From Curvularia clavata (Eukaryota): 64,000 bases of DNA. Below the pieces are notes generated by a model. It was not told the origin of the DNA. It saw only the letters and a list, made by a program, of their open reading frames with translations, and did not search any database. Location of the stretch: the NCBI GenBank assembly GCA_023920165.1, contig CP089275.1:620001-684000 (forward strand). The letters are read 5' to 3'. Shown here one piece after another: positions 57,081 to 62,214 of this stretch. How positions within the stretch are numbered: position 1 is the stretch's first letter; the number at the start of each line of letters is the position of its first letter. The position numbers and the translations under genes are program-made.

Positions 57081-58172
57081 ATGGCTAAGAATCACGAGTT
57101 CACCATAGGATGGATTTGCCCGCTCCCGTTAGAGAAGGAGGCTGCAAGACTAGTGCTGGATGAAGAGTATCCACAAGACGAGGTCCAATACCAGAATGTA
57201 TACTACTTAGGCGGCCGGATTGGACATCATAAGGTTGTTATTGGGGGGCAGCGAAGAACAGGACTAACTGGTGCGGCGATTCTTGCTGAGAAGATGCATG
57301 CTGGATTCCCTAATATCAAGTACTTTCTCCTTGTTGGCATTGCTGGCGGCGTGCCTCGCTATGGGCCACCTGGAGCAGCGTCAGAGATTGTACTCGGCGA
57401 TGTGGTGGTTAGCTCTCCTCGAGGGAAGCTCGGTGGGGTGTTACAATATGACAAAGGCGCATGGGAGGATGAAGGACGGCTGAAATTTCGAGGGCACACA
57501 AACGGCGTACCAGGTGACCTGATGGCTGCGGTCAATGATTTCCGCGCAGATGGCTGGTTTAAGACAAATATCGCAGAAGTTCTCAAGCAAATGCGTCTCA
57601 AGCTGCCCGAGGAACAAAAGCGCCAGTACGATGACCCAGGTCCTAGTCGCGATAGGCTCTTCAAAGACAACTATAAGCATAACGGCACAGAACTCGATGA
57701 CTGCAGAGACTGCTGCGATGCAGACTATGTCGAATCTCGATCTGATCGAGGCGATGGAGCAACTCGACTAGTCGATAGGCCATTGGTTCACTTTGGCAAT
57801 ATCGCATCAAGCAACCAGCTGCAAATATCAGCCGCAGAGCGCAACAGAGTTCAACGAGAGCACGATGTCATCTGCTTTGAGATGGAAGCCGCTGGAGTCA
57901 TGGACGAGTATCCATGTGTCGTTGTTCGTGGCATCTGCGACTATGCAGATTCGCATAAGAATAAAGGCTGGCAGAACTACGCGGCAGCCACGGCGGCAGC
58001 GTGTGCTAAAGGGCTGTTGTCTAGAATCCCTGCGGCAGAAATCACCAGTAGTGCGCCGTCTGCACATTGGTCTGCACCTCAGCAGCCCGCAAGCACGACG
58101 AACATGACGTTTGGCAATAATGAACGTGGCGTACAGGGCAGAGACATTTACGGCAACATACATATTGGGTGA
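57081..58172 (+). CDS. Stand-alone PNP_UDP (nucleoside phosphorylase-like) effector with a C-terminal amyloid-signalling-like motif, 363 aa, single exon
   Basis: IGWICPLPLE, LLVGIAGG, IVLGDVVVS, VHFGNIASSN, CFEMEAAG and RGICDYADSHKNKGWQNYAA are the NLR-type PNP_UDP motifs. A S/P/Q linker follows, then NMTFGNNERGVQGRDIYGNIHIG-stop. Confidence 0.9.
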   Translation: MAKNHEFTIGWICPLPLEKEAARLVLDEEYPQDEVQYQNVYYLGGRIGHHKVVIGGQRRTGLTGAAILAEKMHAGFPNIKYFLLVGIAGGVPRYGPPGAASEIVLGDVVVSSPRGKLGGVLQYDKGAWEDEGRLKFRGHTNGVPGDLMAAVNDFRADGWFKTNIAEVLKQMRLKLPEEQKRQYDDPGPSRDRLFKDNYKHNGTELDDCRDCCDADYVESRSDRGDGATRLVDRPLVHFGNIASSNQLQISAAERNRVQREHDVICFEMEAAGVMDEYPCVVVRGICDYADSHKNKGWQNYAAATAAACAKGLLSRIPAAEITSSAPSAHWSAPQQPASTTNMTFGNNERGVQGRDIYGNIHIG

Positions 58173-58439
58173 TATTGAGGTATCGTGTTGTAGCGACTCA
58201 GCAATAGAAAGAATAAATGCTATAGAGACTTCGATGTACGATTAGCTGAGAGTTATGATACAAGTGACGCTAGAAGGGCTACGGCGAGGCTGGTGGAGCA
58301 AGCGGATAAACAGCCAGGCGCTGCAGGCTGCAGGCTGCATGGCCACCAGGCTGAGGAGGTACTGCGCCGCACACCATCATTGCAGACTCCATCGCTGTAG
58401 ACACACCACTCATGGTGCACGCTCTTCTACAGCGATGCC

Positions 58440-61400
58440 ATGACCTCAGCGACATCGAACATAGCATTCGGCGACGCGTACTCTAGCGTCCAAGCTAACA
58501 ACATCAACGGCTCTGTCCATATCGGTATGTCGCGGGGACTGCCCGACGGCTGTCAAGCGCTAAGCAGATACGTCAAACAGGACTTGAGAATACACTCGAT
58601 CGTCTCCCACGCGCCGGAGAGGCACCGCTCAACTCGTATGCCAGGCAGCATGAAGATGTATGCCTTCCTGACACGCGCGTCGACCTGCTACAAGAGATAT
58701 ACAGTTGGGCGGACGGGCAGGACGAGCGGTGCATCTTCTGGCTCAGCGGCTTAGCAGGTACAGGCAAGTCGACAATCGCGCGGACCGTCGCGGAGAACTA
58801 CTACGCCAACCAGCGTCTCGCCGCCAGCTTCTTCTTCTCGCGAGGTGGTGGTGACATTAGTCATGCTGGCCTCTTTGTTACAAGCATTGCGGTGCAGCTC
58901 GCAGATAACGTTCCGGCGTCTCGCCATTATATACGCGACGCTGTTGCAGAGCGCAGCGACATCGCCAGACAATCCTTACGCGACCAATGGCAGCGCCTTA
59001 TTCTTCGTCCGCTGTCCAAGCTGCACGAGGCTGGATCATACATCATAGTTGTCGATGCCCTTGACGAGTGCGACAACGACGACAATATCCGAACAATCGT
59101 GCAGCTGCTGGCCGAGGTGCGGCCATCATTGACAGGCGTCCAGCTACGGGTATTGCTGACTAGCAGACCAGAAGTGCCGATTCGGCACGGGTTTGGGCAG
59201 ATGGTAGACTCGAAGCACAAGGACGTCGTGCTGCACAATCTCTCGCCGTCGGTCGTTGACCATGATATAGGGCTTTTTCTTGAGTACTGGCTAAGAAAAA
59301 TTGCAAAAGACTATTACTATGCGGATGACTGGCCAGGGGCAGAGACTATCAGAAAATTGGTGCAGGGTGCATGCGGTCTATTCATCTGGGCAGCCACTGC
59401 TCGTCGCTTCATTCAAGAAGGCGGTCAATTTGCTGACGATCGACTGCGCATCATTCTCAAAGACAGCGCCGTTACAGACAGTTTATCCAAGGACAGCTCA
59501 TCTAGTGAGGATTCCTGCACAGATGACCAGCTCGAAATCCCCCCTGAAAAGCGACTGGACAGCATATATCTCACAGTCCTCAAGCGCCCCATTCGCCGAT
59601 ACAGGAAGTACGAAAGGAAGAAATGGTATGGGCTGATGAAAGAGGTTTTAGGAGCAATTGTGCTTCTATACTCGCCGCTTTCTGCAACCTCATTAGCCCG
59701 GTTACTTCTTATTTCTCCAGGGGAAGTTCATCGAACACTAGATGAACTGCACTCTATTCTAGACGTCCCGAAATGTCCGACTGACTACGTTCGTCTACAT
59801 CATCCGTCTTTCCGAGATTTCATTCTCAACGAAGACCGGTGTAGGGATGCCAATCTCTGGGTAGAAGAAAGGCAGGCGCATACAGCACTCGCAGATAAAT
59901 GCATCCAGATTTTGTCGCGCTCGCTTAAGCAAGATATCTGTGGGGTAGGCCATTTTGGTACGCGTGCGGCTGAGATAGATCGGAAGCAACTAGAGGACTG
60001 TATTCTGCCTGAGATGCAGTACACATGCCTCTACTGGACTAATCACCTTGCAAAGAGTGAAGTCCGACTTCATGACAACGACAAAGTGCACGAATTTCTC
60101 AAAAAGCACTTCCTCCACTGGCTTGAGGCACTGAGCTGGATGGGCAAGGTCTCCGAAAGCATCTACGCCATCAGCTCCCTGGAGTCAATTGCTCTAGTAA
60201 GTAGCTTCTGCACTACGATAACTCTTTTATTGACAATACCAAGGCAAGCGAATGTCCTGATCTTTGCGAACTTATCCACGACATGAAGCGGTTCGCGCTG
60301 TACAATCGGGTACCGATCGAGATAGCTCCATTGCAGGTGTATAGCAGCGCTCTTTTATTTGCACCGACAAATAGCATAGTGAAGAGACAATTTGCGGATC
60401 AGCTGACGCAATGGATAAAGAGTCCACCTCAGGTAGATGATGAATGGAGTGCATGTCTGCAGACACTTGAGGGTCACAGCGACAGCATCGATTCAGCTGT
60501 CTTCTCGCACGATTCGACACGGCTCGCGTCAGTGTCAGATGATGGCCAAGCCAAGATTTGGGACGTCAGAAGCGGCGAGTGTCTAAAGACGTTCGAGATC
60601 CATGACTTCAACCATTCGGTAGCTTTCTCACACGACCTGACGTGGCTGGCATCATGGTCATACAATTCCACCACTATCAAGATCTGGGATATCAATAGCG
60701 GTGCATGTCTGAATACGCTTGAGGCCTATACCAGCGTTCACTTGATAGCCTTTTCGCACGACTCTATGAAGCTAGCGTCAGTGTCATTCAAGGGAGCTAT
60801 TGAGATATGGGACGCTAGCAGCGGTGTGTGCCTCTCTACGTCCAAAATCCCTGAATGCAACCTTTACTTGAAAGCTTTCTCGCACGACTTGATGCACCTA
60901 GCGGCAGTGTCAGACGACAATAAGACCATCCAGATCTGGGACAATACTAGCGGGGAGTGTGTGCAGACGCTTGACAGTCATTTTGATTCTGTTATGCCAC
61001 TAGCCTTCTCCCAAGACTCAGCGTGGTTGGCATCAGCGCCCGACGATTATACCGCTATCGATATCTGGGACGTCAGTAGCGGCGCGTGCTTGCATACGCT
61101 TGAAGGCCATGAAGACGATGTTACTTCAGTAGCCTTCTCACATGACTCAATGCGACTAGCGTCAGCGTCATACGATCAAACAGTTATGATATGGGATACT
61201 AGTAATGGTGCATGCCTACAGATATATAAAGGCCATAGCCGCATCATTAACTCTATAGCTTTCTCACACGACTCAGCGCAGCTGGCATCCGCGTCAAGGG
61301 ACATGACTGTTAAGATCTGGGATACTGGCAGTAACACATGTCTGCGGACACATAAAGACAACAACGAAGACGTAAGATCCATGACTTTCACGCATGATTG

Positions 61401-62214
61401 GATGCAGCAGATCCTGGATACTACAGCTTGTACGTGCCCCGAATCAGACGAGCACGGTGGTCGCAAGAGACGTTCCACTCGTCCTTCAACAGCCATTCGT
61501 CGTGACTCGAGGTGGATAGCCCGTGGATTCGAAAACGGCACTATCAAGATCAAGGATAGGGAAAGCGGCGCGCACCTGAAAACACTTGAGGGTCATTGCG
61601 GCTCTATTGAAAAACTGGCCGTTTCACATGACTCGACGCGGCTGGCGTCAATGTCACAAGACAAGACTGTCAAGATCTGGGACGTTAGTAGCGGCGCGTG
61701 TCTACAAACGATTGAGAGCTACAGTGGTTGTTGTTTCAGCTCAATAGCGTTCTCGCACGGCTCAATGCTGCTAGCGTTAGCTTTCGATGATGGAACCGTC
61801 CAGATTTGGGATATTAGCAGCGGCACGTTCCTACGGACTTTTTACGGCCACAATCGCTTTGTTGATAATGTGGGCTTCTCTGATGACTCGACGAAGTTGG
61901 CGTCAGTGTCGTTCGACCGTACTGTTACTGTTTGGGATACCAGCAGCGGCGCGCGCCTGCAAACCTTCAAGACCTGTGTGCTTAGCCGTGTTACCGATAT
62001 TTTTCGTTTGCCACGCTTTGAAGGAACAGTAGCACCTCAGCAGACTACCAATTGCAGTATAAATATCTCCCAGGATAACAATTGGCTATCTCTGAATGGT
62101 CAAGAACGGTTGTGGCTTCCAGTAGAATACCGACCGGGGCACTTCTTCATTTCGGATAGATGTATTACCATAGCCAAACGCTCGGGAAAGACATGGAGAT
62201 GTCGCTTCGTATAG
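58440..62214 (+). CDS. NACHT-WD40 NLR (NWD-type, ~1223 aa) with an N-terminal amyloid-signalling-like motif (3 exons)
   Basis: Exons 58440-58524, 58581-60196 and 60244-62214 splice in frame (3672 nt). CLPDTRVDLL, Walker A WLSGLAGTGKST, Walker B IIVVDALDEC, VLLTSRPE, GLFIWAAT, LHHPSFRDF, FLHWLEALS. About 12 WD40 repeats (LEGHS...AFSHDS..LAS.S.D.T..IWD). Confidence 0.92.

Follow-up and report, generated by a model that had tools for sequence, protein, structure and literature searches.

Introduction

Fungal NOD-like receptors (NLRs) and effectors encoded beside them can form amyloid-signaling pairs, a model that was defined in PMC3321046 and reviewed in PMC5485727. One of the motif families involved, PP, has the consensus FxGx(x)NxGLQLxGxNxGxL with a pseudo-palindromic GxQxG core (PMC3321046, PMC5485727) and is regarded as RHIM-like, either by homology or by convergence (PMC5485727). 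Pairs made of a UDP phosphorylase and a STAND protein (signal-transducing ATPase with numerous domains) that share a motif, sigma, were reported in 2012 (PMC3321046), and a 2022 survey described PNP_UDP effectors beside NLRs with PP-type, sigma-type, HRAM3-like and PUASM motifs and with a further rare motif (PMC9815663). Neighbor pairs combining a PP-type motif with PF01048 are found in file 6 of that survey (e.g., ERF75269/ERF75268 and KEY65953/KEY65955), and one PUASM pair gave amyloid-like fibers and a prion in Podospora (PMC9815663). Most demonstrations of NLR signaling through amyloid motifs concern pore-forming effectors; where the effector is an enzyme, work has been confined to a motif, PUASM. 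Here, we describe a gene pair of Curvularia clavata, one of the Pleosporaceae and close to Bipolaris, in which a PNP_UDP effector and the NACHT-WD40 NLR encoded directly downstream carry matching 23-residue motifs. It lies in a stretch of 64,000 nucleotides (positions 620,001 to 684,000 of the forward strand of contig CP089275.1, assembly GCA_023920165.1), which was analyzed as a whole and is called the window below.

The kind of pair is already known, and we regard this locus as an expected member of its class with a divergent form of the motif, a test case rather than a surprise.

Results

Two adjacent genes share a terminal motif

We consider it nearly certain that the gene pair and its shared motif are real. 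Aligned without gaps, the two 23-mers agree at 10 of 23 positions with a BLOSUM62 score of 55, as the first-pass annotation of this DNA had pointed out for the identities, and the match is unique in the window: among the 56,021 stop-free 23-mers of its six-frame translation, no sequence but the motif itself and its NLR counterpart attains that identity or score. Shuffling the NLR motif 200,000 times never produced a match as good by either measure. From 20 distinct effector-side tails of homologues, a profile was built that included no NLR sequence, and it was searched against 1,453 sequences (240,069 aa) comprising 122 NLR homologues, the window NLR and the window's open reading frames (ORFs) of at least 30 aa. 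It matched eight NLR N termini, that of the window among them, at E values of 2e-6 to 3e-3 and with starts at residues 7 to 14, the next match having an E value of only 0.55; the receptor-side motif of the present NLR was matched at 2e-6 to 7e-5. Neither the six-frame 23-mer scan nor the profile search revealed a third copy of the motif in the window.

The NLR gene starts with an ATG at 58440, on the same strand as the effector gene and 267 bp past its stop codon. Joined, its exons form an uninterrupted reading frame for a protein of 1223 aa that begins MTSATS-NIAFGDAYSSVQANNINGSVHIG-LENTLDRLP. In exon 2, whose protein is 83% identical to Bipolaris victoriae COCVIDRAFT_85820, Pfam recognizes NPHP3_N (E 9e-32) and NACHT (E 6.8e-8), and in exon 3 it recognizes WD40 (E 3.5e-66) along with several beta-propeller families. 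Since the Walker A motif already lies at residue 85, a folded N-terminal domain would not fit in front of it, and only the motif precedes the nucleotide-binding oligomerization domain (NOD) module. The receptor is therefore what the first-pass annotation took it to be, a co-oriented NLR lacking a folded N-terminal effector domain, and the ORF reading together with the disordered tail of the effector model likewise upholds its description of a PNP_UDP protein that ends in the motif after an S/P/Q linker.

Contigs of three RNA runs, each from a different study, align to the locus: X1 and X5, which are labeled "RNA?" but are visibly spliced, and X11, a root metatranscriptome. All three skip 56 nt between 58524 and 58581 and 47 nt between 60196 and 60244, with GT..AG borders in both cases, and in a fourth run from a more distant relative (X17) the first site shows a 57-nt skip with one extra letter. 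Exon 3 is whole, as a single X1 contig spans 60244-62258 without a further joint. The PNP gene is also crossed without a splice joint, by X1 over 57002-58195 (in three pieces with short gaps) and by X5 over 57023-58128; the effector tail is present in the contigs of both runs, and X1 continues through the motif beyond the stop codon. Hence the small exon at 58440-58524 is used, and the PNP tail is retained rather than spliced out, the two points of gene structure on which the first-pass annotation had staked its interpretation. In X1, the effector contig stops at 58195 and the NLR contig starts at 58356, contig ends that cannot fix the ends of transcripts. The contigs differ from the window by a 12-nt deletion in the linker and, within the motif, by a Y-to-H replacement and a G-to-A replacement at the residue following the Q; both replacements recur among homologues. 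The deletion, at 58058, removes four codons from the transcripts of the related organism and fits a spacer of freely varying length and sequence.

Some features of the NLR gene stand apart from the motif. Joints without GT..AG borders occur at 60636-61124 (X1 and X5; the short side has only 21 letters) and at 60473-61126 (X17), and loose contig ends lie near 60616 and 61148. These joints, all within 60473-61126, likely reflect paralogues, differences in the number of WD repeats or assembly collapse over repeats, not introns. At about residues 1000 to 1050 (61350-61500), a basic nonrepeat stretch, ...WMQQILDTTACTCPESDEHGGRKRRSTRPSTAIRRDSRW..., stands between WD40 blades; it is evidently coding, as the RNA contigs cross it without a joint, and it may connect two propellers. 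Tandem Repeats Finder reported no array in 60200-62300, the WD40 repeats being too dissimilar at the DNA level. In the Podospora HNWD genes, WD repeats are highly similar to one another at the DNA level; the present NLR differs from them in that its repeats form no near-identical DNA array.

Table 1. Features of the effector/NLR pair, and long ORFs scanned elsewhere that look like ordinary genes, in positions of the window
Feature	Position	Strand	Basis or remark
Effector gene, single-exon coding sequence, PNP_UDP, 363 aa plus stop	57081..58172	+	ORF; PF01048; identical public protein
Folded nucleosidase domain, residues 1-322, MTAN-like fold	57081..58046	+	AlphaFold2, Foldseek, PDB profile
Low-complexity S/P/Q/A linker, residues 323-340	58047..58100	+	pLDDT <50; variable among homologues
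Effector-side motif NMTFGNNERGVQGRDIYGNIHIG, residues 341-363, extreme C terminus	58101..58169	+	kept in homologous tails
Intergenic spacer, 267 bp, effector stop to NLR start	58173..58439
NLR exon 1, 85 nt: MTSATS, then receptor-side motif	58440..58524	+	splice joint 58524>58581 in X1, X5, X11
Receptor-side motif NIAFGDAYSSVQANNINGSVHIG, residues 7-29; last codon finished by 58581-58582	58458..58524	+
Intron 1, 56 nt, GTATGT...CTAAG...CAG	58525..58580	+	56-nt GT..AG skip in three runs of three studies
NLR exon 2: pre-NACHT region and NACHT NTPase; Walker A GLAGTGKST at 58748-58774	58581..60196	+	Pfam
Intron 2, 47 nt, GTAAGT...AG	60197..60243	+	47-nt GT..AG skip in X1, X5, X11
NLR exon 3: WD40 repeat domain and stop codon	60244..62214	+	Pfam; X1 contig
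DH/PH-domain protein	17.2-23.4 kb		ordinary fungal gene
GH88	24.4-25.6 kb		ordinary fungal gene
Amidase	27.9-29.2 kb		ordinary fungal gene
NmrA-like	50.9-51.5 kb		ordinary fungal gene
FMN_bind_2 protein	63.3-64.0 kb	-	ordinary fungal gene

Both motif forms are conserved across genera

On the receptor side, the motif is nearly unchanged in orthologous NLRs, namely in 5 of the 120 listed homologues and in 2 further cluster members. It reads NIAFGNAYSSVQANNINGSVHIE in the NLR of B. victoriae, NIQFGDAVSSVQANNINGDVHIG in that of Bipolaris oryzae, NINFGDAVSSVQANNINGDVHIG in that of Bipolaris maydis (a paralogue has SIAFGNAYKSVQANNINGSVHIG) and NLAFGNAYSSVQANNFTGSVHWG in that of Paraphaeosphaeria sporulosa. 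Gene adjacency in these genomes was judged from accession numbers. Effector and NLR have adjacent numbers in B. maydis (EMD96729/EMD96728, ENI03597/ENI03596 and KAJ5020843/KAJ5020844), in B. victoriae (XP_014561697/XP_014561696) and in B. oryzae (EUC40167/EUC40168), and the numbers are two apart in P. sporulosa (OAG10552/OAG10550). EUC40167 and EUC40168 are also given as neighbors in the 2022 neighbor table (PMC9815663). On the effector side, the motif is kept in 34 homologous tails, 21 of them distinct. In the orthologous pairs of the three Bipolaris species and P. sporulosa, the two motifs are thus conserved together.

Comparison of the 21 distinct effector tails with the 6 distinct NLR motifs showed that N1, F4, G5, Q12 and G18 are invariant on both sides, that G23 is present in every row reaching that column on either side, and that positions 11, 16, 20 and 22 are hydrophobic on both. 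Each side also has fixed residues of its own: N7, G10, R14 and D15 in the effectors, in which position 13 is mostly G, and A7, S10, A13, N14 and N15 in the NLRs. In these alignments, the effector and NLR copies are two conserved flavors of one motif, not partners that covary change for change. Side-specific differences between effector and NLR have likewise been described for PUASM (PMC9815663).

The receptor-side motif is easily lost from public gene models. Three of them, P0122, P0125 and P0136, start inside or after intron 1 and so come without the motif exon. One of these exon-1-lacking models is EMD84659.1, an NLR paralogue of B. maydis C5, which is scored "noasm" in a table of the 2022 survey (PMC9815663). 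Small first exons probably cause a systematic undercount of motif-bearing NLRs. A protein search with the 41-aa exon-1 ORF returned five candidates and four matches (the NLR of B. victoriae plus three short fragments from JGI) and says little about the spread of the receptor-side motif.

Close NACHT-WD40 relatives of the NLR differ at their N termini. Many (e.g., P0130, P0141, P0165, P0184, P0221 and P0240) carry other short HET-s-like motifs, ...NQYRNIRINEGAKAQLGNIYHI..., and others have HET, PNP_UDP, SesB-like or other domains fused to nearly the same NOD module, which illustrates the modularity of this NLR family.

The effector has a nucleosidase fold

The effector matches Pfam PF01048 (PNP_UDP, nucleoside phosphorylase/nucleosidase superfamily) with 27.5 bits, against a cut-off of 25.1, and is identical to the public protein P0242 at 363 of 363 residues. 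Its closest named relative is B. maydis COCC4DRAFT_199132 (88% identity), and further relatives occur across Pleosporales. The AlphaFold2 model has a predicted template modeling score (pTM) of 0.81, with a predicted local distance difference test score (pLDDT) below 50 for the disordered tail of residues 323-363. When this model was submitted to Foldseek, bacterial 5'-methylthioadenosine/S-adenosylhomocysteine nucleosidases (MTANs) were retrieved with a probability of 1.00 and target TM scores of 0.65 to 0.74 among the MTAN rows. A profile search of PDB sequences (E 4.4e-7) aligned the effector segments FEMEAAG and RGICDYAD with EMEGASV and RSISDTAD of an MTAN homologue, i.e., with the active-site region of this enzyme, and the acidic residues of both segments are kept in the effector. 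E18, E267, E269, D287 and D290 are invariant in 26 homologues. Mapped residue by residue, the acidic residues may be the equivalents of Glu12, Glu174 and Asp197 of Escherichia coli MTAN.

The PADLOC model "PN-superfamily effector" matches residues 229-309 of the effector only (E 2.6e-11). The PNP domain of "NLRN," an NLR of Hyaloscypha variabilis, falls into a family of immune ATP nucleosidases known from bacteria; in vitro it has ATP nucleosidase activity, freeing adenine from both ATP and dATP, and it is toxic to E. coli (10.1101/2023.01.24.525353). A 2025 review takes the same view of fungal NLR PNP domains (PMC12881547). By analogy, we lean slightly toward an ATP/dATP nucleosidase activity of the effector.

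The motif probably descends from PP

Among the 120 listed effector homologues, five types of tail were distinguished: type A, which is that of the present effector (close variant, e.g., NITFGNSRDSIQAGTINGNIQFG), a large type B group (e.g., NVTFGNNNKGFQAGSIHGNISGLHFG), sigma, D (e.g., ...VNHVGSIQAAGGKVIQGSTFHSNGGAMSF, with the pattern ...GSIQ.AGGKVIQG....GGAMSF) and E. Type B can be equated with the PP motif, as Pfam Ses_B (PF17046) matched seven of the eight "GFQ" tails examined, one of them above the cut-off, and effector orthologues with PP-type tails are 67 to 88% identical to the effector. Types A and B are colinear, having in common an N-x-T-F-G-N-N start, a G-hydrophobic-Q center and a hydrophobic-x-G-N-hydrophobic stretch, type A being three residues shorter near its end (GNIHIG versus GNISGLHFG). 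P0065 is intermediate, with a type A center (QARDIHGNI) and a type B end. A profile of 34 type B tails from orthologous effectors matched the window effector tail at E 9.7e-6 and the NLR exon-1 ORF at E 3.3e-3, the latter ranking directly after two canonical PP N termini and the effector tail. In a FastTree tree of 100 enzyme domains, proteins with type A and variant tails form one clade nested among type-B-tailed proteins. Tails of the D and sigma types are spread over the tree, a pattern suggestive of repeated replacement of the tag.

Taken together, descent of type A from the PP motif is highly probable on these comparisons, and we regard type A as a Pleosporales-specific divergent PP derivative that has lost the GxQxG core. 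The PP/RHIM-like hint of the first-pass annotation consequently holds for ancestry, to which the profile match, P0065 and the tree point, and does not hold for present form, as neither the Pfam PP model nor the GxQxG core fits. Its other lead, PUASM, had to be abandoned: compared by direct reading, the published pattern FxGxGxQxxGxGxF (PMC9815663) fits neither peptide. Sigma and HET-s identities were rejected as well, their Pfam models matching neither peptide; a remote relation to HRAM, beyond the reach of the Pfam model, may exist.

Tag classes agree with partner classes in metagenome loci

Metagenome contigs encoding relatives of the effector were inspected at 80 of at least 573 confirmed loci. 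No type A tail was present among these 80, and at most of the loci with about 40% identity, the PNP domains were apparently fused to NLRs, as judged by their tails, or had no tail motif. In L001, the ORF that lies 270 nt downstream of a PP-tailed effector starts MASAISFADGNSGLQAGNIYGPVS, and in L003, another PP-tailed effector has a divergent neighbor 3.2 kb away that starts MPPAIWFGDANTGFQAGVINGNV. In L002 (2460-3060), the effector has the D-type tail ...YGPVSARNVIQGQTVNGGTNTWSFG, and an N terminus of the same type that matches it, MSAGTTPSFYSAVQATNALQGTGISGGNNVFNF, is encoded 430 nt downstream. All three partners continue into TPR-type NLRs. In L004, which also has a PP-tailed effector, no partner was found within the 4 kb downstream that the contig holds. 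The class of the tag agrees with that of the partner in every examinable pair, a class-level match that covers eight pairs in three classes (type A, PP and D-type), the five type A pairs being orthologous and so not independent.

A single PNP_UDP orthologous group, with domains about 60 to 88% identical, thus bears at least five tail types (PP, A, sigma, D and E). The partner NLRs seen were of the NACHT-WD40 class for type A and of the TPR type for the PP and D tails in contigs.

In the remainder of the window, the long ORFs scanned look like ordinary fungal genes (Table 1). No second NLR, HeLo or lipase effector was seen among the 12 long ORFs scanned in 1-56000 and 62300-64000.

Discussion

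Proposed mechanism

At the sequence level, the locus shows every feature of the pairs of Daskalov et al. (2012): a C-terminal extension, an adjacent NLR, homology and conservation. In the mechanism that we favor, which is the usual model for such pairs and in outline that of the first-pass annotation, the WD40 repeats would bind a ligand, and ligand binding would cause the NACHT domains to oligomerize. The oligomerized NLRs would gather several N-terminal motifs, which would adopt a cross-beta fold, and this nucleus would template the same fold in the effector tails. The nucleosidase domains clustered in this way would turn active and deplete ATP, leading to cell arrest or death. Judged against the described pairs, it is likely that the motif acts by amyloid templating, and the chain as a whole, an NLR/effector unit that signals by amyloid templating to a nucleosidase, also appears likely. 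That clustering would activate the enzyme is suggested by close NACHT relatives in which the same domain is fused to the NLR N terminus, since proximity is the only plausible switch in such fused PNP_UDP NLRs.

Several points weigh against this reading. Amyloid formation, cross-seeding and enzyme activation are all assigned to the present motif by analogy. The two sides agree at only 10 of 23 residues, each with its own invariants, so that efficient templating cannot be taken for granted. Neither side has the GxQxG core by which PP and RHIM are defined (GVQGR in the effector and SVQAN in the NLR). The Pfam models for PP, sigma (PF17106) and HET-s/HRAM (PF11558) gave no match to either peptide at E values up to 10, and Ses_B matched none of three type A homologues (P0001, P0011 and P0013) with Pfam run at E values up to 1. 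The type B profile is weak on the receptor side, with an E value of 3.3e-3 for the exon ORF and of 0.05 for the full NLR, and the enzyme-domain tree is a quick FastTree run that was read without support values. As for the enzyme, the PADLOC and PDB sequence matches are confined to the C-terminal ~80 residues of its domain. Finally, the RNA contigs are 90 to 99% alike to the window and come from close relatives, not certainly from the same strain; they establish expression of this gene structure for the lineage and not necessarily for the present strain itself.

The difference between the two sides may be more than drift. Type A could be a built-in asymmetric code for a one-way hetero-amyloid and not merely a drifted PP motif, which we hold to be rather unlikely. 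This idea draws on the uncharged, ladder-forming face of the receptor motif (A7, S10, A13, N14 and N15), which is kept across genera, and on G10 and the charged R14-D15 pair of the effector, with six core positions (N1, F4, G5, Q12, G18 and G23) in common. If it were true, the charged pair could block self-nucleation of the enzyme, so that a lethal ATP nucleosidase would not activate itself, and growth on a seed made by the NLR could still occur.

Alternative explanations

The alternative that fares best is that the motif is a conserved tag for stoichiometric docking, e.g., by beta-strand pairing, which would recruit the enzyme without templating or amplification. The side-specific invariants found across genera (R14-D15 versus N14-N15, and G10 versus S10) would suit a heterotypic interface, and the loss of the PP/RHIM core and the silence of the Pfam amyloid models, mentioned above, point the same way. 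However, the composition of the motif (many N, G and Q residues, hydrophobic residues at alternating positions, a terminal G and a length of 23 residues) and its place at the extreme termini behind a disordered linker are those of known amyloid motifs (PMC3321046, PMC9815663), and its relatives argue against docking too: the tail descends from tails of the PP type, and prions or fibers are reported for both the PP and the PUASM class. On balance, docking seems improbable.

A second alternative holds that the pair is a decaying or rewired relic, whose motifs (43% identity) would be unable to cross-seed, the effector being triggered by another NLR or by none. Besides the low identity between the sides, one may cite a second B. 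maydis NLR paralogue (P0137/P0253), which has the receptor motif and accession numbers far from those of the effector's neighbor, as well as the PP-tailed effector of L004 with its partnerless 4 kb. Many-to-one ratios of NLRs to effectors and nonadjacent partners are, moreover, on record in the 2022 survey for another PNP_UDP-linked motif (PMC9815663). Yet both sides of the motif are nearly constant across Bipolaris and Paraphaeosphaeria, where the genes are adjacent or nearly so; the same six core positions recur on both sides; and both genes are intact and covered by contigs of the spliced RNA runs of close relatives. A relic is accordingly hard to credit.

Membership in the PUASM family, whose pairs resemble the present one in having a PNP_UDP effector, a NACHT or NACHT-WD40 NLR and adjacent genes (PMC9815663), is very unlikely, since in both peptides a G directly follows the F and neither GxGxQ nor a closing GxF is present, and since the orthologous effectors grade into PP-type, not PUASM-type, tails. 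Chance similarity or a wrong gene model, such as an exon 1 that lies outside the NLR, can be dismissed: public models P0122, P0125 and P0136 do omit that exon, but the shuffle, 23-mer and profile statistics, the contigs of three studies that join exons 1 and 2 exactly at the predicted GT..AG and the presence of the motif in orthologues whose models include exon 1 leave this explanation virtually no room.

Significance

The pair is well suited to asking how an enzyme could be turned on by a cross-beta tag, given a compact single-exon effector, an RNA-confirmed gene model, an ATP nucleosidase assay known for the domain family and orthologues with other tags. The orthologous enzyme seems to have exchanged its tag several times together with the class of its partner NLR (NACHT-WD40 or TPR type), which would make the family a natural experiment on how amyloid tags specify the wiring between NLRs and effectors. 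In addition, the locus illustrates why such systems are undercounted, as profile-based surveys miss divergent PP derivatives and NLR models often come without the small motif exon.

As for novelty, the Bipolaris/Paraphaeosphaeria pair and this variant of the motif were not found in the searchable part of the motif-pair tables of the 2022 survey, whose supplements were available incompletely (PMC9815663). Our literature search turned up no paper in which such a motif is shown to activate an enzyme. To this extent the first-pass annotation, which knew of no functional characterization of an enzyme activated in this way, can stand; some chemistry of the domain is, however, already on record, the PNP domain of a fungal NLR being an ATP nucleosidase in vitro (10.1101/2023.01.24.525353).

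Comparison with described systems

The closest relatives by motif are the PP clusters, such as PNT1 with HELLP and the SBP lipase of Chaetomium globosum, which resemble the present pair in having like motifs at the N terminus of the NLR and at the C terminus of the neighboring effector. The motifs themselves are alike in their central hydrophobic-Q, their richness in N and G and their F-G start, and Ses_B recognizes the tails of effector orthologues. In contrast to PP, the present motif has no GxQxG, ends in a tail three residues shorter, escapes Pfam and differs between its two sides at five fixed positions. The effector also differs, being an enzyme here and not a HeLo-like pore former, and so does the receptor if the PP pairs of the metagenome loci are considered, which have TPR NLRs instead of a NACHT-WD40 protein.

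By architecture, the pair is also close to PUASM pairs such as EQB50682.1/EQB50683.1 of Colletotrichum gloeosporioides, in which a PNP_UDP protein with a C-terminal motif likewise adjoins a NACHT or NACHT-WD40 NLR (PMC9815663). The two motifs differ in pattern, and fibers and a prion in Podospora have been seen for PUASM. The sigma pairs of Aspergillus oryzae, Aspergillus terreus and Magnaporthe grisea provided the first reported case of terminal homology between a phosphorylase effector and a STAND protein (PMC3321046). Some orthologues of the present effector bear sigma tails (P0022, P0026 and P0075); sigma itself is longer (25 to 27 aa) and unrelated in sequence, and Pfam NACHT_sigma does not match the window peptides.

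The NWD2/HET-S pair of Podospora anserina shares the general design, a NACHT-WD40 NLR with an N-terminal copy of a motif that matches the C-terminal region of the adjacent effector (PMC3321046, PMC5485727). HET-S, however, belongs to the HeLo pore formers, and its two motif repeats fold into a beta-solenoid, whereas the effector described here is enzymatic and bears just one motif, which comes from another family. Its fold is that of the all-in-one PNP_UDP-NACHT/NB-ARC NLRs and of Cap17-like immune ATP nucleosidases; in close NACHT relatives (e.g., P0134, P0142, P0145 and P0149), PNP_UDP is fused at the N terminus, while here it is a separate protein, coupled to the NLR through the motif only. 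Lastly, the hetero-amyloid that RIPK1 and RIPK3 form through their RHIMs in mammalian necroptosis is alike in that a short motif with a central (I/V)-Q operates between two proteins, but the present motif lacks the G that follows Q+1 in (I/V)QxG, and the proteins and the pathway are different.

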